Assembly (NCBI GenBank): GCA_963775805.1
Contig: CAVZKG010000004.1
Location: 70,296-134,295 of the forward strand
DNA: 64,000 nucleotides
Direction: 5' to 3'
Origin: an uncultured Verrucomicrobiae bacterium
Lineage (GTDB): Bacteria > Verrucomicrobiota > Verrucomicrobiia > Chthoniobacterales > JAFAMB01
In this document: positions 12,424 to 35,465 of the stretch, one piece after another
Layout: the number at the start of each line of letters is the position of its first letter
Numbering within the stretch: position 1 is the first letter of the stretch
The notes under the pieces: model-generated
The model's database searches: none
Told to the model about the DNA's origin: nothing
What the model saw: the letters and a program-made list of their open reading frames with translations, nothing else
Translations under genes and position numbers: made by a program

Positions 12424-15400
12424 TCAGTCGCGGCCTCCGTTAAGAAGCGCATTGAGGGCATCCTCGTCGGAAAGTTGCTCAACGTCGGCCAATACGGTTG
12501 AGACACCTTCCGTCGAAGTTGAACCGCTCACGTCCTTTTTATCGTGAACTGCCGCTTCTACCGTGTCCGACAATGACACTTCCATTTTCTCCGCCAAATG
12601 CCCCGCCAGGGCGTAGATTGTCGGGTAGTTCCAGACCATCGTCGCGGACAGTGTCGTCCCAGTGGTTTGCTCGCATCGATTTTTTAATTCGAAGCCCATG
12701 AGCGAATCGAGCCCAAGCATACCCATAGGCTTTTCGATATCGATTGAGTTCGGATCGAGCTTGAGGACCGCCGCCAACAATTTCTTAAGATGCATTTCCA
12801 AGGCTGCGCGTCGCGCGAAGCCCGAACTAATCGCAAGCAACTCATCGCGCATTTGCTCTTGAAACCGCCGGGCCGGAACTTGCGAACTTCTTTGGACCGA
12901 TTCAGGATGGGCAGCCGCTCCAATATCTGCGAGCAACGGAGGCTCTTCGCCCATCGGGAAGGTTTGACGGAATTTTGCCCAATCCATGCGCATCACTGCC
13001 GCCTGGGTCGCGCCTTGCTGGAGTAGTAAATCCAGAGTCTTGACTCCAAGTGACGGTTGAAAACCTAAAATGCCACGTTGTTCCAGCGCTTTTATTGTGC
13101 GCTCTCCCCCCGGCGTTAATGCCAGTCCGGAGCCGTACCAGCCACCCCAGTTTACTCCGAGTGCATGCCGTTTGTTTGCACGTCGATGATGGACGAATGC
13201 GTCGACGAACGCATTCGCTGCGGCGTAACTGGTCTGCCCGGTTTGACCGAGCAGCGCACCGATAGAGGAGCAGCATACAAAGAACTGCAATGGCTCTTCC
13301 GACAAGCATCGTTCAAGAGCGAGAGTGCCGAGGATTTTGGGCCTGAAAACCGCCTCGAAGCTCTTCGAGTCAAGCTGTGGAACAAGGCGGTCGTCCGCTG
13401 CCGCCGCGGCGTGGACTACCCCTCGGACCGGCAACCAACCTTCGTCCCCGAGTATTTTGATTACCTTCAGAATGTCCTGTTCGTCGGCGATATCCGCAGA
13501 GAAGGTTCGTACTACCGCTCCCTCTGCTTCGATCTCCTGGACGCTCGAGACCCGATTAAACTCCGGGGTGCCGCGGTGAAGATTCTCCCACGTCGCTCGC
13601 TCCGGAAGTGGTGTCCGCCCGACAAGAACGATCTTGCGCGCGCCTTGGGCGGCCAGGTTTTGAGCAATCTTTAACCCCATTCCACCGAGTCCACCAGTGA
13701 TCAGGTAACAGCCGGGAATCGACCAATCGACCTGCATTTGCGTGGCCTCGGTTTTCCTTGGCTGGACAAGACGCGGAACGAATCGGATACCGTCGCGAAT
13801 TGAGGACTGATCTTCCTTATCCGGTTTCGTGATTTGCTCAATTATCGCTTCAACATTGTCGGCAATGGACGCGTCCGGATCCAGATCCAGCGATCCCCCC
13901 CAAATCTCTGGATGTTCGACTGCAAGGACCCGGCCCAAACCCCAGAGCGATGCACCTGACAGTGAGGGCAATCGGGATGGATGGGGAGGTTGCGCACCGT
14001 ATGTCACCAGCCATAAACGTGGACCCGTCGGTTGTAGAGGACTGCCGATGATCGACTGCGCCGCGCGGAGAGCATCCGAGAAAAGAGTGACCACCTGGTC
14101 GTATAGAGGTTCGATCTCACCAGGTTCCGGTTGTTCGTTCGTTCCCAATAGAAAAACCACATGGCGGCACGGCAGCGTGGTTGCGGCCAGAGCTGCATCA
14201 ATTGCCTGGCGAATCCGGTCCGGACGACTTGCATCGATCACAAATTGCCCTTTAGCGATAGTCCCGAATGTTTCTCCGCGATCGAGCCTAACAACCTGGT
14301 TACCGCGTAATTTGAGCGACCGGATTGTGGTCTCGCAGAGTGCTGAACCATCACCGAACACCAGCCACGCGCAGGGCCGGGAATCCGCTTGTCCGGTCTT
14401 CTCAATTTCAACCTGTATTTTCGGATGAGGAGCGGTCTTGGCGACAATCACCGCCTGCTCAAATATGCTTGGCTCATTTTCCGGATTTGCTTCAATTCCG
14501 CCTGCGTCGGAGTACCCGGTCGAGAGCAGAAGTTCCTTCCACTTTTCGATCGATAAAAGCGGATGCGAAGATCGCAGATCGGTATCTTCGAACCGCCACC
14601 ATCCTTCGGTCATGCCAAAAACCAAGTCAATCCAGCGGGTTGGCTTGATTCCCTCCAAAAGGGCTAGTAAACCTCCAGACGCCAAAATCGATTCCGTATT
14701 GGCGAGCGAACGGCGAAGATCCCGTGTAGCGTGCAAGACATTCGACGCAATGATTACGTCAAAATGCCGCTCCGTGATTCCCTGGAGCTTGTATGATTTC
14801 TCGACGTCGAAGAGCAAGTAGCGGACAAATGGATATTCCGAGAATCTTTTGCGGGCGTTCTCGAGGAATAATTTTGAAACGTCCGAGAAGACGTATTCGC
14901 ACGGTACATCCTTTAACAGCGGCAACAAGTGAGCCGTGGTGCCTCCCGTCCCAGCTCCAATTTCGAGCACGCGCAAAACTTTCCCTGGTGGGAGCGTTTC
15001 GACGACTTCTTGCAAGAATTCCCGCACCAGCTGGTTCGGTCCCCGCGCCATCCTCGAGCCTTCGTAAAAGTGCGTCGTTTTTTCGACCGACCCTTCAGGG
15101 AAGAGCAGCTGCAGTGGATCGCACACTCCGCGCAATACCTCAGATAAATGGCCGGCGCAGCGTTCAAATAAATCCAGCTCCGCACGGTACTGGGGATAGC
15201 GATCGTTAAGATCGTGAATCGTCAACGCCGAACGGTCCTGCGGTAATCTGGCGATGACCTCCCACTCGTCTCTGACCGCTCGGGCTTTACCTTCTTCGCA
15301 GAGTATCTGCAGCATCCGAGCCACCAACCGGGTATGTTGAGGGGCAATTCCTAATTTTCTGATCAATTCCTCCGTGGAAATATGATCCCCCGGAGCTGGT

Positions 15401-18400
15401 GCCCATCCCAATTCTTGAAACGTGCGAATCACCAGATTTGCGCTGACTACGTCCAGCGCAGCAATCGTTTCCGTCTCTGCATCTGATTCCGTTGGGTGCT
15501 TTGCCAATTCGGTTCGAAGTCGGTTCTCGCATTGTTCAATATCGGGGAGATAGAGCGGATCCGACCGCCGGAGCATTTGCGCGGGAGAACTCCAAGGTTT
15601 CCATTCGACTCCGAACAGCATCCCTGACGCTATTCGGTCTTCCGACGAGGTCAGCGAATCCGGCGATATCGGATGGAAATGGACGGCTTCAATTTCCGCT
15701 ACGATTCGTCCATTCTCATCGGAAACACGGACATCGCCGCGCAGAATACTAGGCGTGGCGTTCTCCGGAGGAACCAGAACCGCATGGCAAATTAATTGAG
15801 TAGCCGTGCTGCGTAAGGCCCTCAAACGCCGAAAGCCACCGAAGCCCCAAAGCGATTCTTCCGTTTCTCTTTTCCCGGCTGTGTGGATACGAGTTAGAAC
15901 AATGGTTTGCAGGGCGGCATCCAGGAGTACTGGGTGGATCAAATAGTCAGAACGCTCCGAAGCGAGGCGTTCGGGCAACCGAATGCGTGCGATCGTTTCC
16001 GATCTACCCGCGTTTGCTTGCTCAACTACTCGAAAAGCCGGGCCGAATTGTGCACCTCTGGCGGCGAAAAGTTCGTAATAGTCGTTTTCAGAAATGGCAG
16101 CCGCACAGCGACTCAAGACCGCGTCTATTTCAAGTCTCTCCGGACTGTCCAAATCTTGTCGAAGAGGTCCTCTGCGCACGATCAATCGGCCTGTCGCATG
16201 CAGAGCCCAATCGAGTTCTGTCTCTTCGAGTCGTTCAGCGCTGTGCAATTCGAATCCTGCGACTCCATCGACCGACGGTTCCAGTACAACGTGAACGATT
16301 CTTTCGCGGTTCTCCGTCAATATCAACGGCCTGTGCACCACAAAATCGTCCACTTCAGCCGGAGTGGAGGAAAATGCTTCCGTTGCACAGGAGAAAACCA
16401 TTTCGGTCATCAATGGCGCCGGCACGACAATTGCCCCGAACACCCGATGGTCTCGCAAAAACCCAAGCGACGCCGGATGCAGAGACGACTCGTAGATGAA
16501 TCCACGAATGCCAGGCGAACTCAATTTGCGGTGGTTCAAAGAGCGTTGAGCAGATTTCAGCGACGGTATTGAGACAGTTGAGAGCACCGGTGTGGGTGGG
16601 GCTTCGAACCAGTGAGGCGTGCGCTGCCATTGATAAGTCGGGAGTTCCGCGACACGGCCGCCGTCCGGGTACACAGTTGACCAATCGATTTTTGCGCCTG
16701 CCGCGTAAATTCCGCCGAGCGATTCAAACATTTGTTGCCGGTCGGAGCGGGCGTGTCGTAACGACGGGAATACATGAGCTTTGCGCGAGACCGAGGCTGC
16801 ACACTGGAGGATCGCGCTGCACAGGACAGGGTGTGGACTCAATTCAACAAACGCGTTGACGCCCGCATCGAGCATCGCGAAGACGGCATCCGCGAAGTGG
16901 ACGGCCTCTCGGATATTACGCTTCCAATAAGCGGCACCAAAATCTTCGTTCGTTGAAAGGGCGCCGGTGACGGTTGAATAGACTGGAACTCTCGCTTTTC
17001 GCGTTGTCAGACCAGAAACCGAGTCGGTCATCTCTGTCAGAAACGGCTCCATTAGAGGGCTATGAAATGCGTACACTCCCTGCAAAATCTTGCTACGCGC
17101 TCCCTCGGATTTAGCTGCTTCCACGATCTCGTTGATCGCCGTTGCCTCGCCAGAGATAACGATCGAGGAGGGGCCGTTGATTGCCGCGACGGATACTCTT
17201 CCGAAATGCTTTCCTATTAGTCGATCGGCCGCGGATCGATTGATTTCCAGCGCAGCCATCCTGCCGGAATTTTCCGCGCGTTGCATCAGGCGGGCGCGAG
17301 TACAGACTACAAGTACAGCCTCCTCAAACGAGAGAATGCCGCCTAGATAGGCCGCGGCGACCTCTCCAACGCTATGACCGACGATCGCGAAAGGGTTGAT
17401 GCCCCACGACCGCCAGACGGCTGCGAGCCCAATTTGCAACGCGAACAAAGCGGGCTGGGCGAATTCGGTCTTGTGCAGCCGGGATTCCGGTTCGTTGCGA
17501 CGCAATTCGTCCAGTAAATCCCAGGTCGCGTGCCGTCTTACTTCGTCGGCGCACCGGGCGACCTCCATGCGGAACGCTGGGTTTGACGCCATAAGCTCAC
17601 GCCCCATGCCCCACCATTGAGGGCCTTGTCCTGAACAAACCAAAGCGATTTGAGACTGTGCGCCGGAACGTACCGTTCCAACAAATGCGTTCGAAGGGTT
17701 TCCACCCTCCGCGAACTCGCGAAGAGTTGAACATAACGCTTCGCGATGGCCGCCAACGACTGCCATGCGGTGTTCGAGATGCGCGTGACGCGCGGCCGCC
17801 GTGTAAACGAAATCGGCCAAGCTGGTGTCGCGTTTCTCTTCAAGCCAGCGCCGGAAGGAGCGCGCTTGGTCTCTTAGAGCATTCGCTGTATGGCCTGAAA
17901 CTGGCAGAACGTAAAGTTTTTCTGTACGGAGATCAACCGGCGCCTCCTGCCATCGCGGGATCGACTGAGCAGGGAGAGCAACGTTATCTTGGCCATCACG
18001 CTCGACCAATTGCCAATCAATCGGCCAGCCCCGAACATAAAGTTCGCCGGCACTTTTTAAGAGCGACAAGCGTTCGTTCTCGGTGCGGCGGCAAGATCCG
18101 ATAGCAATCCCTTCAGCGTCAAGCGCGCCAAGATTTTGCCGCATCGCACCGACCAGCAACGGATGCGGACTGATCTCAAGGAAGAGTGTGCATCCGTCCC
18201 TTGAGAGGCGCTCCACCACAGATCTGAAGAGCACCGGGCGCCGAACATGTTGTGCCCAGTGTTCCGGTCCTAATTCTCCGCCGGCAACATGGTCACCGGT
18301 AACAGAGGAGACGAATTGCGTCGTCGCTCGCGCCGGATTCAATCCGGTCAAAGAGGCCCTTAAAATCTCGGCTGCCGAGTCCATCTGCGGACTGTGTGCC

Positions 18401-20865: not shown

Positions 20866-20874
20866 GCAAAGCGA

Positions 20875-21693
20875 TTAATATTGCGTCAATGTGCCCTCAA
20901 TCCGGCCCTTCCGAACCATCGCTGCAAAAACAGCCAGACTGAGAGGAAGGAGGATTGCCGCCATCAATCCCAGGGTGACTATCGGTTGGACGATCATACC
21001 TATTGAGTATCCTTTCAAGATTGTCAGCCTGAGCGCATCAAGGGAATAGGTGATTGGAATCAGAAACGAGATTTTTTGAACCCACGCTGGAAGGATGTCG
21101 ATTGGAAAATAAGCGCCCCCAAGCATGGTGCCCATCCCGCCGAGTATCCAGGCAAGCGGATCACCTTTCTTGAGCCACAGAATCGTTGCTGCCGACAACA
21201 CTCCGAATGCAACGAAAGTGAGAAGCGAAAATGCTAGAACCAGGATTGTCGAGAGAATATTCACGTGGCTGAGATTAACACCCATCACAAGCACTCCGGC
21301 GGCGATTATTACCAAAGGTTGCAACGCTCCGGAAATCAAGCCGTACAAAGATGACATCAGCACGATCGTTAGTGAATCGGTCTGGCTGCTCAGCATCGCC
21401 TCCAGGCATCCACTTAGCTGAGCTGCACGAATCGAGTCTGAGAACATCCTGAGCGTCAATTGAAAGTACCGAGCAAATGCAACGCCGATCACCACAAATG
21501 CGAGGTAGTTTCCACCATATCGGGCCGTAAATCGCGAATCTCCGCTGGATACTAATCCGTTAAGAAAGTAGAAAAAGATCAGGACCATCAGCGAGTCGAT
21601 GGCGTTCATTACAAAACTCATTTTGTAACTCGACTCGATCTGGAAATCGCGTCTGATAAAAGCGGCAGCTTTGCGTATCAATAGGGCCATCAT
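20875..21693 (-). CDS. ABC-2 type transporter permease (exporter membrane subunit)
   Basis: 272 aa and strongly hydrophobic, with about 6 predicted TM stretches. The N-terminus MMALLIRKAAAFIRRDFQIESSYKMSF is typical of ABC-2 permeases. Its start overlaps the stop of the ATPase gene (21690-21693). Confidence 0.8.
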   Translation of the reverse strand: MMALLIRKAAAFIRRDFQIESSYKMSFVMNAIDSLMVLIFFYFLNGLVSSGDSRFTARYGGNYLAFVVIGVAFARYFQLTLRMFSDSIRAAQLSGCLEAMLSSQTDSLTIVLMSSLYGLISGALQPLVIIAAGVLVMGVNLSHVNILSTILVLAFSLLTFVAFGVLSAATILWLKKGDPLAWILGGMGTMLGGAYFPIDILPAWVQKISFLIPITYSLDALRLTILKGYSIGMIVQPIVTLGLMAAILLPLSLAVFAAMVRKGRIEGTLTQY

Positions 21694-22499
21694 CGTTTCA
21701 CCGCCACGTTTTGACGATAATAGTCGGAAAGAGAGATCCCTCGCGCATTGACATCCGCAATATGGTCGTAAGCCATTAGCTCCCCTTCATTGATCACCAG
21801 AACTCTGTCGCATAGCTTTATTGCTTCTTCGAGCTGGTGTGTCGCGATCAGGATCGTCTTGCGAGAGCCCTTGTGAAGCCGTTCGTTGATCAACTCGATC
21901 AAGTCTTCGCACGCGACAGGATCGAGTGTCCGGGTAGGCTCATCGAGTATCAGCACTTCGGGCTCTGCGATCAGGCCGCGTGCCAGCGCCAAACGCTGTT
22001 TCATTCCCGACGAATAAGTTGAAACGGGTTTGTCCACAGTTTCTTCGAGTCCCACAAAATGGACTAGCTCTCGAATGCGTTCACTCATGCTCTCTCCGCT
22101 CAAGTTGTCGAGTGCAGCGAAGAATTCGAGGTTCTGCGTTCCTGTTAGTCGCCAAAAAAAACTACGCTCTTCGTTCATAACGAATCCGACTGATCTTCTC
22201 GCCGCAGCGTTATGGCGCAAGGTGTCGTGACCGTTCACCAGGATGTCGCCTTCTGTGGGAAGTAAAAGTCCTCCTACAAGTTTGAGAAGAGTTGTCTTCC
22301 CGGCGCCATTTGGTCCCAACACCGCAACCCGGTCGCCTTTTGCGATTTCGAGGTTGATTGATTTGAGGGCGGTGAAAAGGCGCCTTGCCTTGAACGGAGA
22401 CAATAAGATTTCCCGATAACGTTTAGCGATCGGAAATCGCATCGACACGCTTCGCGCTGAAATCAGACCCTGGGTTGGAACGGCTGAACTATTTGGCAT
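21690..22499 (-). CDS. ABC transporter ATP-binding protein (partner of the ABC-2 permease)
   Basis: Walker A GPNGAGKTT, signature YSSGMKQRLALARGL, Walker B LILDEPT. The ORF track starts at 22673, but that extension runs inside the NRPS TE region. I use Met59 (MPNSSAVPTQ, ATG at 22499), which overlaps the NRPS stop by 11 nt. Confidence 0.85.
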   Translation of the reverse strand: MPNSSAVPTQGLISARSVSMRFPIAKRYREILLSPFKARRLFTALKSINLEIAKGDRVAVLGPNGAGKTTLLKLVGGLLLPTEGDILVNGHDTLRHNAAARRSVGFVMNEERSFFWRLTGTQNLEFFAALDNLSGESMSERIRELVHFVGLEETVDKPVSTYSSGMKQRLALARGLIAEPEVLILDEPTRTLDPVACEDLIELINERLHKGSRKTILIATHQLEEAIKLCDRVLVINEGELMAYDHIADVNARGISLSDYYRQNVAVKR

Positions 22500-25400
22500 G
22501 CAGCGGAGTGTTTTCTCCCTGGACGCTTGCAAGACATTTGAGGAGTCGTTTTGCGATCTCTTCTCCATGCAGATACCGAGTCCAGTGGTCGCCTCGTGTG
22601 ACGTGAACTTCGAGACCACCCTTCGGTACGCCACGCCAGCCCATGTTCTTGTCGAAGCTGTGCTGCTTTTCATTTATTATCAATGCGATACTGCCCGGGT
22701 AGGTCTTAACTCGATTGCGATACATTGTTCGCATATAGTCCATTCTTAGTTTGTATAGGCGGCGAGTGGCCGATACCTCCTCGGTTTTTGTCTCTTCCGC
22801 GCCGAGCTTGCGGCGACGCAGATCTTCTAGGATGGCCGACCGTGAGCTTCCAGTGCTCCGGATAATTTGAGCGAGAACATGAATAATATGCTTTGCCCGA
22901 TTCCATGCATTGTACAAATCAAGCCCCAAGGAGCGAAGCACGGTCGGTCGGTGAGTATCAAAAAGGACGAGCAAGCGGACTTCTTCGCCCTGTTGCATGA
23001 GCTTTTCGGCCATGACTAGCGCTACAACACCGCCGGCGCAGTCACCTCCGAGAATATAAGGACCTTTTGCTTGGACGCCTCGAAGTTCAACCAGGAACTC
23101 TGTCGCTACCTCGTTCGCATCTCGGTACCGATCTGACACTCCATCAAGCCAGCGCGGTTGAAACCCGTAAACGGGCTGATCGAGACCAACATGAGGAATG
23201 AGTCTGGAAAGGACACGGAGCGTATCGTCTGCATCCATGAAGCCGGCTACTAGAAAGAATGGTACCCGTGAGCCCTTCGGCTGAGCTGGGACTAGCCGGT
23301 TCCATCTGCAGATTTCGCCTGCGTGATAGTACCTGTCGGCATAGTCGTCGTATTTGATCGTCTTGGACAGCCCAGCAATTGTTGGCTCGATGAAGATACT
23401 TCTCAAAGGGAGATCTATTTTAAATATCGACTCCAAACGCGCGACAAGGCGCGTCGCTGAAAGCGAGTGCCCCCCAAGTTCGAAGAAATGATCAAAGACT
23501 CCGACCTTCGGAATCTCCAGGATTTCACTCCAAGCGTCGGCCATTATCTGCTCTACCTGGTTGCGGGGAGGTACGTACCCCCCTGTGGAATCCGGCTCGT
23601 TTGATTCTGGAGCAGGCAGCGCGTTTCTGTCGACCTTTGCATTCGGCGTAAGAGGAATGCTGTCCAGAAATACAAAGCCGGAAGGAATCATGTATTCGGG
23701 CAGGACAGATTTGAGGCGATTGCGCAATTCCTCGATCGTCGGACGCTGAGAACTTGCTGAAACGACGTATGCTGTCAAGCGCACGTCGCCTGTGTTCGTT
23801 TTGCGAGCTGCTACTACGCACTCTCGTACTCCTGGGTGCGAAGAAAGTGTCGCCTCAATCTCGCCTAATTCGATACGATAACCTCGGATCTTGACCTGGT
23901 TATCAACACGTCCAAGGCACTCCAGACGTCCGTCCGAAAGATGCCTGCCAAGATCACCTGTCCAATACATACGTGTTCCCGGGCGAAACGGATCCGAAAC
24001 AAATTTTTCGGCGGTTAATTCCGTCCGGTTAAGATATCCGCGGGCGACACCGTCGCCGCCGATCCACAAGTCTCCCACCACTCCGCGCGGCACCGGTTCG
24101 AGATTTTTATCCAGTACGTATATTCGCGTGTTGGCGATCGGTCGCCCGATTGTTACCTCGTTGGATTCAATTTGAGCGATCGCCGACCAGATCGTTGTCT
24201 CCGTTGGGCCGTACATATTCCAGGCCGATTTGCATGCTCCAACCAAGCGGAGTGCCATTTCACGGTCCATGGTTTCACCGCCGCATAAGGCCGTTAACCG
24301 CTGGTTGCCTCCCCAACCTGACTCGAATAATAGGCGCCACGTCGCAGGGGTCGCTTGCATTATGGTCGCTCCCGAGTCTTCAAGAACATGTGATAAAGCG
24401 ACTCCGTCTGTAACCGTCTCTCGGCTCGCCACGTGGATCCGTGCTCCGGTGGTTAAAGGCAAGAATAATTCCAAGGCCGCGATATCGAAAGCCGGCGTCG
24501 TTACCGCGAGGAATATATCTACCTCATTAATTCCCGGCTCCCGGGCCATTGAACACAAAAAATTGGTTAGCGCTTTGTGTTCAATTTCGACTCCTTTGGG
24601 CAGACCCGTTGAACCGGAAGTGTAAATGACGTATGCCCGGTCGGACGACTTTGCGATAGTCGGTATCGGTGCGTTGTCGTGCTGTTCAATCGCGTCCTTG
24701 TCGGCGTCCATGCAGACCTTTGTGAGCGTCGAATTCGAAAATAACGTTTCGAGAAGCCCTTTCCGGGTGATTAGCACTCTTGCTCCGGAGTCCTCGAGCA
24801 TGTATCGCAGACGTTCCGCCGGAAAGGCGGGATCCAATGGCAGGTAGGCGCCACCGGCCTTGAGGACAGCCAAGAATCCGACGACCATCTCTAATCCGCG
24901 CTCGATGCACACGCCGACCAATGACTCCGATCCAACTCCGAGCGATTGGAGATGCCGTGCCAAACGCGTAGAAATGGTGTCCAGCTCTTCATACGTGAGT
25001 CCGACCTTTTCGTATCTAACCGCTTCGGCATTCGGTCTGCGGACGACCTGTTGCCGAATGAGGTCTACAACGGTTCGCTCCTTTGGATAGTCTCGGTCGG
25101 TTTCATTTAGTCCTGCTACCAGTTGCTCCCGCTCGGTTCTTGTGAGGATTGGAATTTGCGATGCATTGGTATCCGGTAAAACCACTACTGCCTGTAGCAG
25201 CGTTTTGTAGTTCTCCGCGAGCTGCGTGACCGTCGAATCTTCAAATAGATCCGGGTTGTATTTTAGAACGCCACCATAGGCCCCGGACTTCTCAATGAGC
25301 TCGATTGACAACTCAAATTGACCTTCTTGTTGTGGAATCCAGAACTGTTCCAGAACCAGACCCGCAAACTCGGTTTGCACGCCGGACTCCCCGTATCCGA

Positions 25401-26670
25401 CGATCTCTTCGAGTCCCGCGATTTCTTTGAACTTTTGGAGAATAAATACGGTTTGGAATACAGGTGTGCGCGAAAAATCACGATTTGGGTGCAGCTTTTC
25501 GACTATTAGCGGGAAAGGATAATTTCCATGACGTATGCCGTCGACGACCGCTTGGCGGACCTGTGCAAGAATTTCCCGGAAGGTTGGGTCATTGTGAAAC
25601 GACCCTAACAGCGGAATCATGTTGATAAAGTCACCAACGATATTGCCGAACTCCGGGCGATCGCGACCGTACGTCGGCGACCCAACAATAACCTCCTGTT
25701 GACCGGTATATCGGTGTAAAAGAATGTGATAGGCTGTCAGCAGAACAACGTATGGAGTTGTATTTTCTGCGGCGGCTAGAACGCGTACCGCCTTGCTGAG
25801 TTCCGCGCCCAGATCGACAGGAACCGATGCACCTATTTCAATTAACGAAGCCTGTCGCGGACGATCGGTTGGCAAGTTGAGAGACGAATGGAGGCCCGAA
25901 AGTTTGGATATCCAATAGTCTTCGTGTTCCTTCCCCTCGGGACTCGAGAGCATTGCTTCCTGCCAACGTGCGTGTTCGAGAATATCGTGCCCGGGACGGG
26001 GCGGCGGCGGCGCAGTTCCGCCCCTTTCTGATGGATAGATTTGACGCAAATCGTCTAATAGCAGGAAGAGTGACCAACCGTCCGCGGCAATGTGGTGGAC
26101 GCTGAAAACTAGCACGTAGTCGTCAACCTCACGCGAAAACAGGTCGACTCGCATGAGCGGACCGTTTTGCAGGTCGAACGGGGCTCGAGAAGCCTCAAGA
26201 ACTTCTTTTCGCAGCGCTGGCAATTCGATACCGGGCCGACTATGAAGTTCGAAATGGACCGGCATATAGCCATGAACCACTTGGTTAAGACCATTCAAAT
26301 CGGCGCGAAATGTAGTGCGTAACGAAGCGTGCCGATCTACCAACGCTTGGAACGAGCGGCGCAAAGCAGGCAGATCAATTGAGGACCGAATCCGAGCTGA
26401 AAAGACCACGTTGTACGCGGCGCTCCCAGGGTTCGCCTGATGCACGAACCAAAGGGCTCGCTGCCCATGGGAGGCCGCTTGAGTGACAGTTTCGCGGGTG
26501 GCGCGCTCGCGCCAGTCGACTAGAATCGTATCTTTTTGCGATGCCAGCTGCGATCGCAAATTCTCGGTGAGGGTCCCTTTTGTCGCTCGATACCGAAGCC
26601 GGCTTCCTTCGCCCCAGACCGTCACCCCTTGTTCGCGAAGGGTATCCATCAATGCGATTTTATCGCTCAC
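22489..26670 (-). CDS. NRPS termination module: TubC-type docking domain - C - A - T - TE
   Basis: Dock: LREQGVTVWGEGSRLRYRATKGTLTENLRSQL. C: VHHIAADGWS. A: YTSGSTGLPKGV, NMYGPTETT, YWTGDLG, GRVDNQVKIRGYRIELGEIE, PNAKVDR. T: FFELGGHSLSATRL. TE: PFFLVAG...GPYILGGDCAGG...LVLFDTH...RGDHW. Confidence 0.95.
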   Translation of the reverse strand: MSDKIALMDTLREQGVTVWGEGSRLRYRATKGTLTENLRSQLASQKDTILVDWRERATRETVTQAASHGQRALWFVHQANPGSAAYNVVFSARIRSSIDLPALRRSFQALVDRHASLRTTFRADLNGLNQVVHGYMPVHFELHSRPGIELPALRKEVLEASRAPFDLQNGPLMRVDLFSREVDDYVLVFSVHHIAADGWSLFLLLDDLRQIYPSERGGTAPPPPRPGHDILEHARWQEAMLSSPEGKEHEDYWISKLSGLHSSLNLPTDRPRQASLIEIGASVPVDLGAELSKAVRVLAAAENTTPYVVLLTAYHILLHRYTGQQEVIVGSPTYGRDRPEFGNIVGDFINMIPLLGSFHNDPTFREILAQVRQAVVDGIRHGNYPFPLIVEKLHPNRDFSRTPVFQTVFILQKFKEIAGLEEIVGYGESGVQTEFAGLVLEQFWIPQQEGQFELSIELIEKSGAYGGVLKYNPDLFEDSTVTQLAENYKTLLQAVVVLPDTNASQIPILTRTEREQLVAGLNETDRDYPKERTVVDLIRQQVVRRPNAEAVRYEKVGLTYEELDTISTRLARHLQSLGVGSESLVGVCIERGLEMVVGFLAVLKAGGAYLPLDPAFPAERLRYMLEDSGARVLITRKGLLETLFSNSTLTKVCMDADKDAIEQHDNAPIPTIAKSSDRAYVIYTSGSTGLPKGVEIEHKALTNFLCSMAREPGINEVDIFLAVTTPAFDIAALELFLPLTTGARIHVASRETVTDGVALSHVLEDSGATIMQATPATWRLLFESGWGGNQRLTALCGGETMDREMALRLVGACKSAWNMYGPTETTIWSAIAQIESNEVTIGRPIANTRIYVLDKNLEPVPRGVVGDLWIGGDGVARGYLNRTELTAEKFVSDPFRPGTRMYWTGDLGRHLSDGRLECLGRVDNQVKIRGYRIELGEIEATLSSHPGVRECVVAARKTNTGDVRLTAYVVSASSQRPTIEELRNRLKSVLPEYMIPSGFVFLDSIPLTPNAKVDRNALPAPESNEPDSTGGYVPPRNQVEQIMADAWSEILEIPKVGVFDHFFELGGHSLSATRLVARLESIFKIDLPLRSIFIEPTIAGLSKTIKYDDYADRYYHAGEICRWNRLVPAQPKGSRVPFFLVAGFMDADDTLRVLSRLIPHVGLDQPVYGFQPRWLDGVSDRYRDANEVATEFLVELRGVQAKGPYILGGDCAGGVVALVMAEKLMQQGEEVRLLVLFDTHRPTVLRSLGLDLYNAWNRAKHIIHVLAQIIRSTGSSRSAILEDLRRRKLGAEETKTEEVSATRRLYKLRMDYMRTMYRNRVKTYPGSIALIINEKQHSFDKNMGWRGVPKGGLEVHVTRGDHWTRYLHGEEIAKRLLKCLASVQGENTPLHAK
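22516..23283 (-). other. Type I thioesterase domain with a Cys nucleophile (GGDCAGG; Cys codon TGC at 23038..23040)
   Basis: Residues ~1130-1385 of the NRPS. The alpha/beta-hydrolase TE pattern is PFFLVAG ... VYGFQ ... GPYILGGDCAGGVVALVMA ... LLVLFDTH ... RGDHW. I read the DNA as gga ggt gac tgc gcc ggc ggt. Confidence 0.8.
23617..25083 (-). other. Adenylation domain, hand-extracted specificity code D-I-L-Q-L-G-M-I-W-K (glycine-type)
   Basis: Aligned by eye to the GrsA-Phe landmarks. FDIAALE gives D235 I236 L239. IMQATPAT gives Q278. ALCGGE gives L299 G301. WNMYGPTETTIW gives M322 I330 W331. PNAKVDR gives K517. Confidence 0.6.
26515..26664 (-). other. TubC-like beta-hairpin docking domain at the NRPS N-terminus
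   Basis: MSDKIALMDTLREQGVTVWGEGSRLRYRATKGTLTENLRSQLASQKDTIL matches the remembered TubC_N pattern (L..L...GV.LW.EG..LRY.AP.G.LT.EL...L...K..IL). Confidence 0.7.
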
Positions 26671-29600
26671 AGCACACCCTCCTCAAATTCGAGAACCGGT
26701 GCATTTGACCCTCTTGACATGTCAGGAGTTTGCATTGTGGCCAGCAGCTCGGTTATCCATTCTGTTAGCTCCGCAGGCGTTGGACCCTGAATGAGCTGCG
26801 CCATTGCGACACTCACACCCAAGTCGACATCGATTTGGTTCTTCAACTCGATCGACATGAGTGAGTCGAAACCCATCGCCGATATTGGCTTTTGGGGTTC
26901 AACCGAGTCAATCGGTACCTTGAGAATTCGGGCTATTACCTGCTTCAGATAATCCTGTACGAGGGTCGAGCGGTTACCGGCGTTCGTGGCCAGGATTCGC
27001 TCGCGGGTCTCGACGTCAGCGCTCTTAGCGGGAGATGTCGAACCTTCCCCAGAAACCAGCAGCGACAGATAAGGGGCGATTGCCATATCGCCGTAGGAGC
27101 GCCGCCACTCCTTCCAATCGATAGGCATGACTCCGACTTGGATATCCCCTTCATCCAGGAATAGTTCCATGGCCTCCAAAGCTTCCTGATTCGACAATGT
27201 GCCGATCCCTTTCGTGGCTCCAGTCCGGCCATGGCGTTTCGATTCCTGTTCAGTCTGAAAACGGGTGGCCATTCCCGCTTGCTCCCAGGTACCCCAGTTC
27301 ACACTCAGCGCCGGGAGACCCATCGCTCGCCGATGGTGAGCAAGCGTATCAAGGAAAACGTTCGCTGCCGAATAACCTCCCATCATTGGCGAACCCAAGA
27401 GCGCTGACGAAGACGAAAATAGAACAAACAGTTCCAAAGGAACAGTTGCCAAGAACCGATGCAAAAGCCATCCTCCGATCATTTTGGGCGCCAAGACATC
27501 TCGTATTTGCTGCGGCGTCTGGTTGCAAAATGGTTCGTACTGCATCACGCCGGCGGCATGAAATACACCTCGTAGCGGCGGTTGACCGCCCAATAAGCAT
27601 TGGTTAACGAGTTCCCGCACCGATTCCTCGTTTCCCATATCGACAATTTTTGTTTGCACGTTTGCGCCCCGTTTCTCCAGTTCGCGAATCGCCGCAATCC
27701 GGGATTCTTCGATCGATCCCCGCTCAAAGTTGTTCCATTGCTCGCGTGAGGGCATTGCCGTCCGTCCTGCCAAAGTCAAATGACGGGCGCCATGAGCGAC
27801 CAGCCAATCGGCGATGACCAGTCCAATTCCACCTAACCCACCCGTGAGCAGATAATTTGCATCCGGCCGGATCGAGATCGGGTCAGACGTTGACCTCATT
27901 TTCGACCGCCGCCCCAAGCGGAGGACGTGCTCCCGTCCGCCGCGAAAAGCAAACTGGTCATCAGCGCTACGTTTCTCTAACCGTGCGGCCAGCATATCGG
28001 CCGCTGCGTCCGGAGTATCACTCGGATCAAGGTCAAGTTGCCCGCCCCAGAAGTCAGAACATTCCATCGCGATGGCGCGACCAAATCCCCAGAGCGGAGA
28101 TTGAAGCAAGGAAATAGGGGAAGGCTTCGAATCTGCAGGTTGCGCACCTGCGGTGATCAACCACAGCTTCGGAGGAACCGTTAGCCGCAGGCGATCGAGC
28201 GATTGCGCGACCCTCAAAACGCTGATCGGTCCGAGTGACTGAGCATCTTGAAGAGCTGCTAGGTCAGCGCGTTCGAGGGTTTGCGCGTCAAGACTCCACA
28301 GATGCACAACACGCTTTAGCTCAGGTGTCAGCTTCCTTGCTTCGGAGAAGATTTGGTCATAATCAGAGGCTTGGTCGCGCCGAATCGTAATGAGTGCTTC
28401 GCCCGAACGGGAGAATTGATCCCCGTAATCCACACACAGGCATGTTGCTCCTCGTCCTCTCAGTCGTGCGCACAGTGCGTCGCCAACCCCTTGACGATCG
28501 CGAAAAATGACCCATGTTCCGGTCGCCGATGCGTCTGGAGCCCGTTCGAGATCCCTGTCACTCGGAATCCATCGAGGTTCGTAAAGCCAGTTCTGCACGT
28601 TTCGGAGCGCCTTCTCTTGTTGTTTCGAGTCCAAGTACCACAGCCGCGCTCCGATCGTCTCTGTGATGAGGTTTCCGGCGAGGTCGAACACTTTGACGTC
28701 GCCGACTAGGGTGTTATCCGCAGTAGAGTCCCTGCCGCGAATTTTTGCATAAGCGTAGAATCTTCTGCCCTCAGGCCGCCGATATAGTCGGACTTCGTCG
28801 ATACCCGCACCGACAAAGGCACCACCAAGAGCATCGTTCGATTTTTCAAGAGGAATCGTTGCGGTGAGGATGTGCCCCAAACTATCCGCAAGAGCCGGGT
28901 GAAAAACATAACTCGAGGTCTCTTGTTCGATGCCGATTGGGATTGTCACCTCGCTTAACGCTTCTCCGTTTCCCTGCCAGATCCGAGTGACGCCTTGAAA
29001 GCAGGGTCCCCACTGGTTGCCCCGATCGCTTTGCAATCGATAGAACTCGCTCCCATCCAAGGAACGGGTCAAGTTCCTTTGAAGTGCTACTCGTTCGAGT
29101 TCGTTCCATTTCTCATCCGGAATCCGGATCTCTCCGGTTCTCAGCGCACCCGTGGCGTGCAGTGTCCAATTCGTATTTCGATTTTTTCTTCGGCTGTGGA
29201 TCTGGAACTCAATGATTCCTGAACCCTGTTGCGCGAGGCGAGTTTGGATCTCAAATGTTCGACCCGACTTAAGTTGCAGTGGTCTCGCTATGTCGATCCG
29301 TGTCAAAACCACTGGCAATTCCGAAATCGCTTCGACGGCGGCAGCAATGGCCATTTCGACATACGCAGTCGCAGGGACGACGGATACGCCTTGTACGCGG
29401 TGGTCGTCGATCCAGGAGACTTTTTCCAGACTGATCTCGCCAAACCAGATATGCTCTCCTGGATGGAATGCCAGAGGTACATGCGTTCCAAGTAAGGGAT
29501 GACCGTCAGTCCGTTTGAGGTCGGGGTCAGGGCTCGAGACGGGAATCCAGTGACGCTTCCGTTGAAATTGATAGTTCGGTAGCGTAACGCTTTTGCGACG

Positions 29601-32300
29601 ATACGGTTTATCATAGGACCGCCAATCGGGGGTTGCGCCCGAAACAAAGAGCGCTCCGAGGCTCGACAGCATTTGATAGTGATCCGTCACCGCCGGATTT
29701 AACGAAGTTAGCCATGTCGTCTCCGAGTCTTGCAGACATTGGCGACCAATGCGCGCAAGTGTCGAGGAAGGTCCGACTTCGAGGAAGGTCCGGATCCCGC
29801 GAGTGTGCAGAGTTCGCAGCGATTCTTGGAATTGGATTGGTTCGCGGAGCTGTCGACGCCAATATCGAGCATTCAACGGTAAATCTTCGTCCACCAGGTG
29901 CCCCGTAAGAGTGGAGATCATGTCTACTTTTGGGATGGCACACGGAAGGCCTTCGGCAAATCGCTCTAGTTCTCCCAGGATCGGCTCAACAAGCGGTGAA
30001 TGGAGCGCGTGCGAAGACGACACCAATTGCGCATCGATGCTCAGGGAGCGGAAACGTTCAATTAAACGGTGAATAGCGTCCGATCTCCCAGAAATTACCG
30101 TGTTTTGTGGCGAGTTTACTTCGGCGATAGCGACCAAATCGGCATAGCTTGTGATTTCCTTCCGTACTAGTTCCTGTCCGGAGAACACGCGGGCTATCGC
30201 ACCATCCCGGGGTAAATTTTGAATGAGGCGCGATCGGAAGGCTACTAAACTTATCGCGTCCTCGAGAGCCATCGCCCCTGCAATACAGGCGCCTACATAT
30301 TCGCCTACGCCGTGGCCAAGGATCGCTGACGCTTCAATTCCCCAAGAACGCCACAGGGAAGCAAGCGCATACTCGAGTGCGAACAGAGCTGGTTGGCTGT
30401 AGCGAATTTCATCGGGAATGATCTCAGATTCAAAATGGTCAACGTAGTGGAGGAGTTTCAATAAAGGACGATCGCAGTGCTTGGTAAGCGCAACTGCGCA
30501 TTCCTCAATCGCATTGCGGAATATCGGTTCGGTTTCATACAGGGTCCGTCCCGCGCCCCTCTGTTCCGTTCCTTGCCCAGCAAACAAAAATGCGACTCTG
30601 GAGTCGGAGCGAACGCGCCCGTGCACGAGTTCGGAATTCAATTGACCCAGAGCGAAATCATTGAGCGATTTGCACGCTATCGCAATCTCTGGCGCTGAAA
30701 AAGCCAAGCGGTGGGAGAGGGGTGATCGGTCTGCCATAGCCGAATGACAGATGTCCGCTAAAAATTGTTCTGTGCCTTCTCCGAAATGCTTGGAGTACGT
30801 CAAAGCTAGTTCCTTCAACGCAGGCTCGGTGTCGGCAGAAAGAACAAACAGGTGGACTGAACGATCCTCCCGCGCCGGTTCGGTATCTAACTGCTTTTCA
30901 GGAGGTGGCTCTTCCAGAACAACGTGGGCATTCGTGCCGCTAAACCCGAACGAACTTACTCCTGCCAGACGCGGACGCCAGGATCGGGGCCAACTCACCG
31001 TTTGAGTGCAAATCTCGATCGGTGCCTGACCTAAGGAAATTCGTGAGCTGAGCTTTTGAAAATGAAGCTGAGGCGGTATTTCCTGATGCCCCATCGATAG
31101 GACCACCTTGATTAGGCCCGCGATGCCCGCGGCTGACTCAAGATGTCCTAGGTTGGTTTTTACCGATCCTACACGCAACGGCTGATTTGTCGGGCGATTC
31201 TTACCAAGAACCTTCGCCAAAGCTTCGAGTTCGATTGGGTCGCCGATCGCGGTTCCGGTGCCATGGGCTTCCACGTAGTCCACATCTTCAGGTTGGATGC
31301 GAGCAGCCTTCAACGCGGCTCGAACCACGCTCTGTTGCGCCAGCCCGTTGGGAACGGTCAATCCGCTACTTGCACCATCCTGATTGACTGCACTGCCGCG
31401 GATCAGGGCCATGATTCGGTCTCCTGCCGCCACTGCGTTGTGAAGACGTTTCAACGCAACGACGCCGCACCCTTCCGCTCTTACGAAGCCATCCGCCCTC
31501 TCATCGAAAGTCTTGCATCGTCCATCCATCGCCATCATGCCCCACTTTGCAAAACAGACGAACGGTTCGGGTGTAAGAAGCATGTTGACCCCGCCGGCCA
31601 GTGCCAGGTCGCACTCGCGCGCGCGAAGACTCTGGCAGGCTAGATGGACAGCGACCAACGAGGACGAACACGCCGTATCAATTGCGATGGATGGCCCGGT
31701 GAAACCGAACACAAAAGAAAGCCTGCCCGCTGCGACGTTTAGTGCTCCACCGGTGGCAGTATAGACATCGAGACTCGCTGAGCTGTTTGCCGCCAATCGA
31801 GCGTAATCGGAAGTTGTTATCCCGACAAATACTCCTGTCGGCGATCCTCGCAGACTATTTGCGGCAATCCCCGCGTTTTCCAAAGCTTCCCAAGTGACTT
31901 CCAGCAGAAGTCGCTGTTGGGGATCCATGCTCTCGGCTTCCCTGCCTGAGATGCCAAAAAGCCCTGCGTCAAAGCGGTCGACCTGATCCAGAAAGCCGCC
32001 AAACGGCGCGTGCATTTTACCGGGCGCGGACGGGTCCGGATCGTAGTATGCGTCCTTGTCCCAACGATCGGGCGGCACTTCTTTGATCGCATCGACGCCA
32101 TGGCTCAAAAGTTTCCAATAGGCTTCGGGATTGTCGGCCCCTGGGAATCTGCATGAAAGGCCGACGACAGCGATCGGTTCGTCCTGGGAGCGTTCGGCAA
32201 TTTCGAGACGGCTTTGGAGCGAATCAATCGCCTCCATAGCTTTTCGCAAAAGGACCTTACGCTCGCCTTCTTGGCGAGCGGCAATGTTGAGATCTGCCAT
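26667..32300 (-). CDS. Type I modular PKS, KS-AT(like)-DH-KR-ACP; first gene of the operon
   Basis: 1877 aa. N-terminal coiled-coil dock: RKVLLRKAMEAIDSLQSRLEIAE. KS: DTACSSS/EAHGTGT/KTNLGHLE. AT-like: FAGQGTEQRGAG, GHGVGE, SHALHS. DH: HRVQGVSVVP, LADSLGH. KR: TGGLGGIG, GGYSAANVF. ACP: MGFDSLMSIEL. The stop overlaps the NRPS start (ATGA-type coupling at 26667-26670). Confidence 0.95.
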   Translation of the reverse strand: MADLNIAARQEGERKVLLRKAMEAIDSLQSRLEIAERSQDEPIAVVGLSCRFPGADNPEAYWKLLSHGVDAIKEVPPDRWDKDAYYDPDPSAPGKMHAPFGGFLDQVDRFDAGLFGISGREAESMDPQQRLLLEVTWEALENAGIAANSLRGSPTGVFVGITTSDYARLAANSSASLDVYTATGGALNVAAGRLSFVFGFTGPSIAIDTACSSSLVAVHLACQSLRARECDLALAGGVNMLLTPEPFVCFAKWGMMAMDGRCKTFDERADGFVRAEGCGVVALKRLHNAVAAGDRIMALIRGSAVNQDGASSGLTVPNGLAQQSVVRAALKAARIQPEDVDYVEAHGTGTAIGDPIELEALAKVLGKNRPTNQPLRVGSVKTNLGHLESAAGIAGLIKVVLSMGHQEIPPQLHFQKLSSRISLGQAPIEICTQTVSWPRSWRPRLAGVSSFGFSGTNAHVVLEEPPPEKQLDTEPAREDRSVHLFVLSADTEPALKELALTYSKHFGEGTEQFLADICHSAMADRSPLSHRLAFSAPEIAIACKSLNDFALGQLNSELVHGRVRSDSRVAFLFAGQGTEQRGAGRTLYETEPIFRNAIEECAVALTKHCDRPLLKLLHYVDHFESEIIPDEIRYSQPALFALEYALASLWRSWGIEASAILGHGVGEYVGACIAGAMALEDAISLVAFRSRLIQNLPRDGAIARVFSGQELVRKEITSYADLVAIAEVNSPQNTVISGRSDAIHRLIERFRSLSIDAQLVSSSHALHSPLVEPILGELERFAEGLPCAIPKVDMISTLTGHLVDEDLPLNARYWRRQLREPIQFQESLRTLHTRGIRTFLEVGPSSTLARIGRQCLQDSETTWLTSLNPAVTDHYQMLSSLGALFVSGATPDWRSYDKPYRRKSVTLPNYQFQRKRHWIPVSSPDPDLKRTDGHPLLGTHVPLAFHPGEHIWFGEISLEKVSWIDDHRVQGVSVVPATAYVEMAIAAAVEAISELPVVLTRIDIARPLQLKSGRTFEIQTRLAQQGSGIIEFQIHSRRKNRNTNWTLHATGALRTGEIRIPDEKWNELERVALQRNLTRSLDGSEFYRLQSDRGNQWGPCFQGVTRIWQGNGEALSEVTIPIGIEQETSSYVFHPALADSLGHILTATIPLEKSNDALGGAFVGAGIDEVRLYRRPEGRRFYAYAKIRGRDSTADNTLVGDVKVFDLAGNLITETIGARLWYLDSKQQEKALRNVQNWLYEPRWIPSDRDLERAPDASATGTWVIFRDRQGVGDALCARLRGRGATCLCVDYGDQFSRSGEALITIRRDQASDYDQIFSEARKLTPELKRVVHLWSLDAQTLERADLAALQDAQSLGPISVLRVAQSLDRLRLTVPPKLWLITAGAQPADSKPSPISLLQSPLWGFGRAIAMECSDFWGGQLDLDPSDTPDAAADMLAARLEKRSADDQFAFRGGREHVLRLGRRSKMRSTSDPISIRPDANYLLTGGLGGIGLVIADWLVAHGARHLTLAGRTAMPSREQWNNFERGSIEESRIAAIRELEKRGANVQTKIVDMGNEESVRELVNQCLLGGQPPLRGVFHAAGVMQYEPFCNQTPQQIRDVLAPKMIGGWLLHRFLATVPLELFVLFSSSSALLGSPMMGGYSAANVFLDTLAHHRRAMGLPALSVNWGTWEQAGMATRFQTEQESKRHGRTGATKGIGTLSNQEALEAMELFLDEGDIQVGVMPIDWKEWRRSYGDMAIAPYLSLLVSGEGSTSPAKSADVETRERILATNAGNRSTLVQDYLKQVIARILKVPIDSVEPQKPISAMGFDSLMSIELKNQIDVDLGVSVAMAQLIQGPTPAELTEWITELLATMQTPDMSRGSNAPVLEFEEGVL
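29706..30599 (-). other. Acyltransferase-like domain with the catalytic Ser replaced by Gly (GHGVG; Gly codon GGC at 30309..30311)
   Basis: Residues ~568-865 of the 1877-aa PKS. I read the DNA directly: ctt ggc cac ggc gta ggc gaa = L G H G V G E. The upstream GQGxQ box also deviates (GQGTEQ). Arg +25 is retained. Confidence 0.8.
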
Positions 32301-32421: not shown

Positions 32422-32611
32422 ACGGTTAATCGACATTGGGCGCAATTTATTTAGCTAAATTGTCTTGCAGAACGCGAATAAATTGCAAAATGCAGACCTG
32501 CCCCAAAAAAAGCAAGTGTCTCCTCCAGCGTTTTAGTGCGTTTGTAGAGTTCGTTTGTCTAGAGCGCCCAGGTTTTCTATAACACGGAACAGCCAAGAGG
32601 AAATCGTTTGG

Positions 32612-35318: not shown

Positions 35319-35398
35319 TAGTAACTCGGTAAGATACAATCGACCGAACGCAAGCCGGGAACAGATTTCGGCCCGATACGTTGGCGATTCGGAAAATT

Positions 35399-35416: not shown

Positions 35417-35465
35417 GGTTCGGCAAAAATTGCCGTCGGGTTTACTGCAAACTTATTCCTGAGCG

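Follow-up and report, generated by a model that had tools for sequence, protein, structure and literature searches.

The cluster described here most probably (about 87%) encodes one cis-AT PKS-NRPS assembly line whose genes stand in a rotated version of their working order, which, judged from sequence, would run E-F-G-H-I-A-B. This order follows from the elimination of docking partners, from a genome that offers no other partners and from a colinear orthologous cluster. In the proposed pathway, the first acyltransferase of E (AT1) would load a monocarboxylic starter onto the N-terminal ACP of E, and the chain would pass from E through F, G and H to I by pairing of acidic, two-helix-like tails at the C-termini with coiled-coil heads at the N-termini; for F to I, gene order is taken as the working order, and it is the same in the colinear relative. 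The tail of I would then dock on the N-terminal helix of A, the first gene of the cluster, 30 kb upstream. A would add the last ketide, with its ACP probably malonylated in trans as its own AT lacks the serine, and the EFEEGVL of A would bind the beta-hairpin dock of B, which would add one amino acid and release the product through its Cys-thioesterase. J, a RifR-like type II thioesterase after I, would edit, and an ABC-2 pair would export the product. The original prediction that the terminating modules are encoded first and the loader fifth was borne out, each feature on which it drew being found in its place on the minus strand, and its proposed path from the loader through the downstream genes to the 1877-aa PKS and the NRPS-TE gains support from docking elimination, genome content and the colinear relative.

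Layout of the gene cluster

The stretch of DNA analysed (the window) comprises 64,000 nt of contig CAVZKG010000004.1, and two genes of the cluster lie beyond it. Domain content was established by Pfam for all ten genes of the cluster, which run on the minus strand in the order A, B, ABC-2 exporter pair, E, F, G, H, I and J:

26667..32300, minus strand: gene A, 1877 aa; N-terminal coiled-coil dock, KS(Cys)-AT(GHGVG)-DH-KR-ACP, C-terminal EFEEGVL (Pfam, motifs)
32181..32300, minus strand: N-terminal docking helix of A, residues 1-40 (orthologue identity, PDB match)
26670..26699, minus strand: C-terminal short linear motif of A (...PVLEFEEGVL), predicted ligand of the hairpin dock of B
22489..26670, minus strand: gene B, 1393 aa; TubC-type beta-hairpin dock, C(HHIAADG)-A-PCP-TE(GGDCAGG) (Pfam, PDB matches, TE alignment, motifs)
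21690..22499, minus strand: ABC transporter ATPase (Pfam; true start at 22499 from orthologue alignments)
20875..21693, minus strand: ABC-2 permease (Pfam, junction)
12424..20865, minus strand: gene E, 2813 aa; ACP(L)-KS-AT1-AT2-DH-cMT-KR-ACP and C-terminal acidic dock (Pfam, motifs, AT alignment)
5736..12422, minus strand: gene F, 2228 aa from its true start; N-dock, KS-AT-DH-ER-KR-ACP, C-dock; module 2
1319..5743, minus strand: gene G, 1474 aa from its true start; N-dock LSPLKRAILELRELRARL, KS-AT-cMT-ACP, C-dock; module 3
1..1287, minus strand: 5' part of gene H, in full 2259 aa and running off the window to G000:C4:64803; N-dock, KS-AT-DH-ER-KR-ACP, C-dock; module 4
Off-window, C4:57844-64806: gene I, 2320 aa; KS-AT-DH-cMT-KR-ACP, C-dock, without TE; module 5
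Off-window, C4:57101-57847: gene J, type II thioesterase, 248 aa, GYSVG
32555..33367, plus strand: Sfp/HetI-like phosphopantetheinyl transferase, divergent from A; NCBIfam 4PPT_HetI E 4e-43, below the equivalog cut-off

Since neighbouring genes overlap or lie 1-31 nt apart, the ten genes appear to form one operon. The start of B overlaps the stop of A by 4 nt, that of the ATPase (22499) overlaps the stop of B by 11 nt, the permease overlaps the ATPase by 4 nt and stops 10 nt before the start of E, and J overlaps I by 4 nt; beyond J, the unrelated genes GH39 and guaA mark the end of the cluster. For F, G and the ATPase, the ORF list gave starts too far upstream; they were corrected to 12422, 5743 and 22499, respectively. 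The original prediction had placed acidic tails and N-terminal helices on the downstream genes; these are present, but the starts from which it took F and G were wrong, the true lengths being 2228 and 1474 aa. All six KS domains carry the C/H/H triad, every module has an in-line AT, and all ACPs carry their serine in G(L/F/M)DS or GLES, as in modular cis-AT type I PKSs, the AT of module A lacking its nucleophile. An Rfam search of the window gave no match, and a scan of 13-33 kb for promoter and terminator consensus sequences gave counts at or below those of shuffled sequences.

The two ends of the proposed assembly line

As originally predicted, the fifth gene holds the only loader-like architecture in the cluster, ACP-KS-AT-AT being found in E alone, after the exporter genes. 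E begins with an ACP (residues 20-95, motif LGLES) and has no N-terminal docking head; its KS motif, DTACSSS, has the extender-type Cys. In the AT alignment, AT1 reads AHSLG and VAAH and has Ser in the column equivalent to Arg117, and thus is without the carboxylate-binding Arg, which AT2 (GHSVG) keeps. E thereby has every part of a split loader of the SorA/MtaB type, and we infer that in E such a loader is joined to module 1 and that biosynthesis begins there. The same ACP-KS-AT-AT arrangement is common to E and to SorA (soraphen), MtaB (myxothiazol), MxaF (myxalamid), CmdA (chondramide) and MiuA (miuraenamide). The clusters of these five are described as beginning with the loader gene, whereas here it is the fifth gene, and the five loaders are myxobacterial, whereas the host here is probably a verrucomicrobium. 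In myxobacterial split loaders, the N-terminal ACP is served by the first AT (PMC10051162, PMC5655351).

At the other end, the 1877-aa product of A has the features of an extender that had been ascribed to it. Its KS carries the Cys-His-His triad (DTACSSS, HGTGT, NLGH) and is preceded by a helical segment of ~40 residues that aligns with the N-terminal docking regions of CurL and DEBS (PDB match to CurL 4mz0, E 1.2e-6). This helix is 48-70% identical across four orthologues, the whole C-terminal tail 36-39%, and no partner for the helix is encoded upstream of A. At the C-terminus, 38 of the 39 orthologues of A retain the acidic-hydrophobic tail (E/D)(F/Y)EEGVL, and, among the synthases of the cluster, an EFEEGVL-type tail occurs on A only. 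These features suggest that A, though encoded first, is the last PKS module (module 6).

The first ~57 residues of B resemble the beta-hairpin docks of TubC, EpoB and AerJ, both by Pfam (TubC_N, PF18563, residues 7-50, 43.8 bits, cut-off 26) and in a PDB sequence search (AerJ 8aqq E 1e-8, EpoB 7e-5, TubC 2e-4). Upstream partners of hairpin docks end their carrier protein in an acidic-hydrophobic five-residue motif (PMC9113145). The tail of A is likewise acidic-hydrophobic, and its EFEEGVL is predicted to fit the TubC-type dock of B only. B is built as a terminal NRPS module, with C-A-PCP followed by a release domain in the same protein; in this TE the nucleophile is Cys (GGDCAGG), which aligns with the Ser of TEs of known structure. 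The TE of the NRPS was originally noted as the only one seen; B does have the only integrated TE in the cluster, but the off-window J is a second, discrete thioesterase of type II.

J is, by its sequence, a RifR-like type II thioesterase of the editing family. It has the ~250-aa length of discrete enzymes of this kind, matches PF00975 (E 5.7e-43) over positions 2-224 of 226, and aligns over its full length with RifR (E 7.7e-41) as well as matching RedJ, SrfA-D and YbtT. With RifR-type enzymes it shares the GxSxG and GDH motifs, here intact as GYSVG and GDH. Whereas the type II thioesterase follows I here, it follows B in relatives L022 and L024. A search of the G001 genome, whose cluster is otherwise fully syntenic with all seven synthase genes, did not find J.

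Docking partners and alternative readings

C-terminal tails are found on five proteins (E, F, G, H and I) and N-terminal coiled-coil heads on five (F, G, H, I and A). F, G and H have both an N-terminal helix and an acidic C-terminal tail. In the 70 kb to the left of the window, the last PKS, I, proved to end as the original prediction had it, in an ACP and a docking tail without a TE; the tail is a conserved acidic helical one, ...LSEDEMAALLLKKLEQMK. With five tails, five heads and a tail on A predicted to fit only the dock of B, the order would be E, then F, G, H and I, then A, then B. Across the whole genome there is no other modular PKS or NRPS, the sole other locus being a single HR-PKS without docks, accompanied by a free C domain. 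A second release domain or a loader of A's own had been named beforehand as the mark of two colinear pathways; the genome-wide search found neither a second integrated release domain nor a separate loader for A. The stand-alone J is the only item resembling either.

Assignment of the docks to known classes succeeded in part, for four heads and for B. In G, H, I and A the head aligns with the N-terminal dock of CurL (L-S-x-L-K-R-A-L-L-A...), a member of class 2 (curacin-type; CurG/H and CurK/L), and for H and A the alignment spans CurL residues 2-53 (E 1.3e-7 and 1.2e-6), including the stretch before the KS. Docking domains of class 2 have been reported chiefly in Gram-negative producers. B matches the TubC hairpin. 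The C-terminal tails, in contrast, have no significant match to solved docking domains such as the class 2 C-docks of CurG, CurK and Bamb_5925, which consist of two alpha-helices: PDB sequence searches with the tail of I alone and with an 11-tail profile gave nothing significant, the best match being an XpsB docking construct (E 0.5). A single-sequence AF2 model of the ACP and tail of G has two short terminal helices, at low confidence (mean pLDDT 49).

Could the operon instead hold two independent lines, a polyketide line from E to I released by J and an acyl-amino acid line of A and B that takes its starter from primary metabolism? J lies directly after I with its active site intact, and L020, L021 and L023 have A-B in a transcription unit apart from the loader arm. 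We nevertheless consider this very unlikely, since J is closest to editing enzymes and was not found in G001, where all seven synthase genes are kept; the C-dock of I and the N-dock of A are conserved and have no other partner in the genome; the KS of A has the extender Cys, and nearby genes offer nothing to load A; and the colinear relative puts I before A. It is no more credible that A and B end the chain while F, G, H and I work in an order other than that of their genes. G and H have almost the same head (LSPLKRAILELRELRARL, LSPLKRALLAIEELQAKL), and F resembles G in its tail, so that docking alone may not fix the order of F to I, but F-G-H-I is kept both in G001 and in the colinear relative, and most docking pairs in known clusters are encoded adjacently (PMC1994986).

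The remaining alternative accepts the order and holds that the line is broken in this strain; the operon would then be in decay, and its gene order would serve no function today. In the AT of A, the catalytic Ser is replaced by Gly (GHGVG), the GQG box is degenerate (FAGQGTEQRGAG) and HALH stands for HAFH; it is also the fastest-evolving AT of the cluster, at 52% identity against 65-73%. Without the Ser, module 6 would not be self-loading, which could impair the line in this strain. That the cluster is decaying is, however, improbable in our view. Some 47 kb of synthase and accessory reading frames are all open, and the KS (83%), the ACP (75%) and both docks of A are as conserved as in the other genes. 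Moreover, loss of the Ser recurs in the A orthologues of G001, P0009 and P0040, in genes otherwise intact. In all, the nucleophile is lost in 4 of ~40 members, at least twice independently, a tree placing the losses in the window and in G001 apart. Recurrent, independent loss in intact genes points to tolerated trans-loading rather than decay, and the ACP of A is probably malonylated in trans. The preferred reading remains a single line in the order E-F-G-H-I-A-B.

Relatives and the probable origin of the rotated order

An uncharacterised metagenomic contig, contig_59913 of ENA ERZ25039547 (loci L025 and L028-L031), carries the colinear arrangement F-G-H-I-EamA-A-NRPS. Its orthologues, located by walking gene by gene (a search with F had missed the F orthologue), are 51% (F), 62% (G), 72% and 58% (H, in two pieces), 60% (I), 58% (A) and 50% (NRPS) identical. 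The docks are as in the window cluster, with ELEFEEGAL as the tail of A. It differs in that the E-equivalent is an ordinary extender with further modules before it, the NRPS is bimodular and the ABC genes are not orthologous. A divergent layout is found in L024, whose PKS arm is partly in view: A-B-TEII-PPTase and the loader arm are operons that diverge from each other, with A-B beside the loader. The rotated A-B-loader order occurs in seven relatives (56-69% identity), among them G001, G002, L020, L021, L023 and L026 with the loader seen; L027 has A-NRPS first at the cluster edge, with the loader outside the view. The cluster of G001 is fully syntenic, and the TE of B is its only thioesterase; in the fragmented assembly of G002, the I orthologue was not found. 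In L020, L021 and L023 the intervening ABC pair is inverted, which splits A-B and the loader arm into two transcription units. In a sample of 400 genomes of the phylum there was no B orthologue, the best match being 42% identical; the cluster itself is probably verrucomicrobial.

In a paralogue-rooted tree, the rotated loci, eight with L027, and the window form one clade (support 79%; nodes below, 71-75%) nested inside the colinear and divergent relatives, which suggests that the rotation was a single, inherited block move. Most likely, the A-B-first order arose once, when the block was transferred from last to first place in a colinear cluster. A cyclic permutation that included the ABC pair was rejected, as the ABC genes in contig_59913, at 33% identity, are no orthologues. 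It is conceivable, though doubtful, that A-B is a portable cassette for termination, joined by recombination to various upstream lines, the rotated order marking a site of re-insertion; the ACP of A would then normally be malonylated in trans within an otherwise cis-AT line. Candidate partners of such a cassette are the five-gene line primed by ACP-KS-AT-AT here, the line primed by an AprA-type GNAT/methyltransferase in L024 and the longer line in contig_59913, and A-B possibly stands alone in L022.

The rotated order is an ordinary member of a known phenomenon, in an uncharacterised cluster. Among benchmark cis-AT clusters, 27 of 90 are non-colinear, and 19 of these 27 differ by one gene only (PMC11199612), whereas here a two-gene terminating block has moved to the very front. 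As in the non-colinear cis-AT type I PKS clusters of MIBiG used to benchmark Seq2PKS and DDAP, gene order differs from biosynthetic order, and the latter is recovered from docking ends. Since PKS function is known not to need gene order, nothing changes in principle. The cluster is a small example of a block move that reorders genes without breaking the pathway, and product prediction for this orphan cluster needs the module order E-F-G-H-I-A-B rather than the gene order. With its orthologous synthases arranged in three ways (rotated, colinear and divergent), this family makes a clean natural test set for programs that predict module order from docking domains.

Layout and extent of the cluster

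The window (G000:C4:70296-134295) belongs to a genome of 5.53 Mb with 53.5% G+C in 8 contigs. All relevant genes lie on the minus strand and are transcribed in the order A, B, ABC ATPase, ABC-2 permease, E, F, G and a partial KS gene, H, which was completed from the sequence left of the window together with I and J.

Genes of the cluster in order of transcription
A: 32300..26667, minus; 1877 aa; KS-AT-DH-KR-ACP
B: 26670..22489, minus; 1393 aa; TubC_N dock-C-A-PCP-TE
ABC ATPase: true start 22499, minus; 3' of B
ABC-2 permease: minus; after the ABC ATPase, before E
E: 20865..12424, minus; 2813 aa; ACP-KS-AT-AT-DH-cMT-KR-ACP
F: true start 12422, minus; KS-AT-DH-ER-KR-ACP
G: true start 5743, minus; KS-AT-cMT-ACP
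H: minus; KS gene cut by the window edge, completed off-window; 2259 aa; KS-AT-DH-ER-KR-ACP
I: minus; after H; 2320 aa; KS-AT-DH-cMT-KR-ACP
J: minus; overlaps the stop of I by 4 nt; 248-aa discrete thioesterase

Genes overlap by 4 or 11 nt or are separated by gaps of 1-31 nt, and Cys-His-His is present in 6/6 KS domains. The gene features on which the original prediction drew (A an extender PKS, an NRPS-TE next to it and the loader as fifth gene) were confirmed as written. The ACP-KS-AT-AT loader of E has an arrangement known from SorA, MtaB, MxaF, CmdA and MiuA. In the AT alignment, its first AT (AHSLG) has Ser in the column of the carboxylate-binding Arg, which fits a loading AT for a monocarboxylic acyl-CoA, and its second is a normal extender AT. 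The AT of F (window 9807-10730) shows GHGSQ vs. GQGSQ and RAFH vs. HAFH/YASH, and may therefore select an unusual extender unit. In the TE of B (window 22543-23124), the nucleophile is Cys (GGDCAGG) at the alignment position where solved NRPS TE domains have Ser, and the Cys recurs in each of the four close orthologues examined (G001, G002, L020, L021). On the cluster's other side, a HetI/Sfp-like PPTase gene diverges from A, followed by a double-DUF5069 protein and a neighboring, minus-strand luciferase-like monooxygenase (the two at window 33398-34312 and 34332-35426), either or neither of which may belong to the cluster.

The original prediction had proposed that the last PKS left of the window be checked for an ACP plus docking tail without a TE, and I does end in an ACP with the tail ...LSEDEMAALLLKKLEQMK and no TE. 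J matched type II thioesterases (RifR at E 7.7e-41, RedJ, SrfA-D and YbtT), and has the motifs GYSVG and GDH. Beyond J, a GH39 gene (opposite strand) and guaA mark the end of the cluster. When KS, AT, C, A and both TE types served as tblastn queries against the whole genome, only one other PKS locus was found, on contig C1 (G000:C1:2666292-2679090; L007:4292-17089). It encodes a single 2570-aa KS-AT-DH-cMT-ER-KR-ACP protein whose KS starts at residue 10, leaving no dock, and its neighbors are a free C-domain protein, a fatty-acid desaturase, a MacB-type ABC pair and a LolA-like protein. A second TE or a separate loader for A had been named as the sign of two colinear pathways. The tblastn searches revealed no other loader for A and no other acceptor for the chain of I anywhere in the genome, while a second, discrete type II-like thioesterase (J) does follow I. 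Its candidacy as terminator of an independent line from E to I is argued against by the relative's genome G001, in which the cluster is complete and syntenic (A'-B'-E'-F'-G'-H'-I', followed by an SDR on the opposite strand, an IS remnant and a histidine kinase). When the whole G001 genome was searched, no J homologue was found, which leaves B' as the only thioesterase there.

Docking ends and the proposed working order

E starts with a carrier domain, without an N-terminal dock, and must therefore open the line. The acidic tail L-S/D-E-D/E-E-x-x-x-L-L is found at the end of five proteins (E, F, G, H and I), and five (F, G, H, I and A) start with a helical head; for H and A, this head can be aligned with the CurL docking region (4mz0; E 1.3e-7 and 1.2e-6, respectively) and also with DEBS module 5. 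Only A ends in ...EFEEGVL, and a beta-hairpin dock occurs only at the N-terminus of B (PF18563, 43.8 bits, cut-off 26); it resembles those of AerJ (1e-8), EpoB (7e-5) and TubC (2e-4). Docks of this kind bind a short C-terminal motif of the upstream carrier protein (PMC9113145). From this tally and the unique A tail and B dock, the predicted order E -> {F, G, H, I} -> A -> B is the only closed chain, an argument by elimination for which a docking code is unnecessary.

Comparison with orthologues showed that the docks are conserved and the adjoining linkers are not. The last 18 residues of I read LSEDEMAALLLKKLEQMK in the window strain vs. LSEDEISALLLKKLEQMK in G001, and the A head is 48-70% identical across orthologues. 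Identity over the whole A tail is 36-39%, but EFEEG(V/E)L is always terminal; (E/D)(F/Y/I/W)EEG-x-L closes 38 of the 39 protein-database orthologues of A.

A colinear relative was found on the 345-kb contig_59913 (ENA ERZ25039547), which carries an A homologue of 58% identity (P0036). Walking along the contig, we read its genes as follows, all on one strand.

Genes of contig_59913 in order (identities to the window cluster)
E-like extender: three ORFs; DH-cMT-KR-ACP part 42-53% identical to that of E
F: 2198 aa; 51%
G: 1476 aa; 62%
H: two ORFs; 72% and 58%
I: 2319 aa; 60% full-length; tail ...ASEEELASELLKRLEQIK
EamA gene: small; between I and A
A: 1885 aa; head ARQEAERKAVLRKSLEAIDTLQTRL; tail ELEFEEGAL
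NRPS: bimodular, last; first module 50% identical to B

Each synthase gene had the expected gene of the window cluster as its best match. Since the I orthologue is placed just ahead of the A orthologue, synteny lends independent support to the proposed hand-over from I to A. Elimination of docking partners and this relative thus agree with the original prediction that the loader gene works first and the line returns to A and then the NRPS-TE.

Relatives and the probable origin of the rotated order

The cluster's closest relatives bear the labels uncultured Verrucomicrobiae, Chthoniobacterales and Verrucomicrobia MAGs, which makes the source organism probably a verrucomicrobium. B is 68% identical in L003/G001 and 64% in L004/G002, two species genomes; the others are metagenome contigs L020 and L021, and L023, L026 and L027, reached via A homologues. 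A, then B, then an ACP-KS-AT-AT gene occur in six of the seven (G001, G002, L020, L021, L023 and L026), the loader gene of L023 being seen as frameshifted KS, AT and MT fragments. L027 has unrelated genes before A and a bimodular NRPS after it, and stops at an inverted permease with the loader outside view. The ABC pair is co-directional in the window only, inverted in L020, L021, L023 and L027, and absent in G001, G002 and L026.

The A orthologue of G001 (L003:6810-10004; 1064 aa) has lost DH and KR and is KS-AT-ACP only, so a beta-keto group should remain before the amino acid in that line; with the Cys-TE, one may speculate, this would allow a tetramate-type Dieckmann release. Synthase ORFs are split in I' of G001 (within the AT; L005:7497-14446) and in the H and E-like genes of contig_59913 (L028-L031), which probably reflects long-read indel errors in the assemblies and no real split.

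L024 (P0039, 56%) has A-B-TEII-PPTase on one strand; an AprA-type loader gene and other PKS genes are transcribed divergently from it. Its 2788-aa initiation protein (L024:923-9289, minus) carries AprA_N, WHD_AprA and Methyltransf_36 ahead of its ACP-KS; the locus uses the A-B-TEII-PPTase unit with a different initiation gene. L022 (P0051, 54%) has A-B-TEII with unrelated genes upstream, and its contig ends just after. A tree was built from the N-terminal 940 residues of A and of its orthologues, with the paralogues F, G, H and I as root. In it, L022, L024 and the colinear contig separate one after another, and every locus that has A-B in front falls into a single clade (79% support; nodes below it 71-75%). 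The simplest reading is that the A-B block, at first the end of a colinear cluster, would have been relocated to the front once and then inherited, a step with a probability of about 60% because tree support is modest. TEII lies 3' of B in L022 and L024 and 3' of I in the window, which fits excision of A-B from between I and TEII and hence a single relocation, as do the positions of the PPTase gene, beyond A-B in L024 and adjoining A in the window.

The AT of A and the place among known systems

The AT of A (window 29706-30599) has GHGVG vs. GHSxG in the others, a degenerate GQG box and HALH vs. HAFH. In G001 this AT reads GHGLG, and its catalytic His is missing too (DPFH). Gly replaces the catalytic Ser in P0009 and P0040 as well; the motif was unmatched in P0025 and P0027, and Ser is kept in the remaining 33 A orthologues with a readable AT motif. 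Since the A proteins of the window and G001 are sisters in neither of two trees, the Ser was lost at least twice. Between these two strains the A AT is the least conserved (52% identity vs. 65-73% for the other six ATs), and the KS (83%) and ACP of A show the same level of conservation as other parts of the cluster. We infer that the ACP of A can be malonylated by another AT; alternatively, the AT defect might impair the line in the window strain.

Docking ends are the standard means of ordering non-colinear cis-AT PKS clusters, and 27 of 90 clusters in a benchmark were of this kind (PMC11199612), and PKS function has been shown not to need gene order (PMC1994986). The cluster itself is uncharacterized; its rotated order, with A-B encoded before the loader gene, is very probably correct but, as non-colinear cis-AT clusters are common, ordinary.
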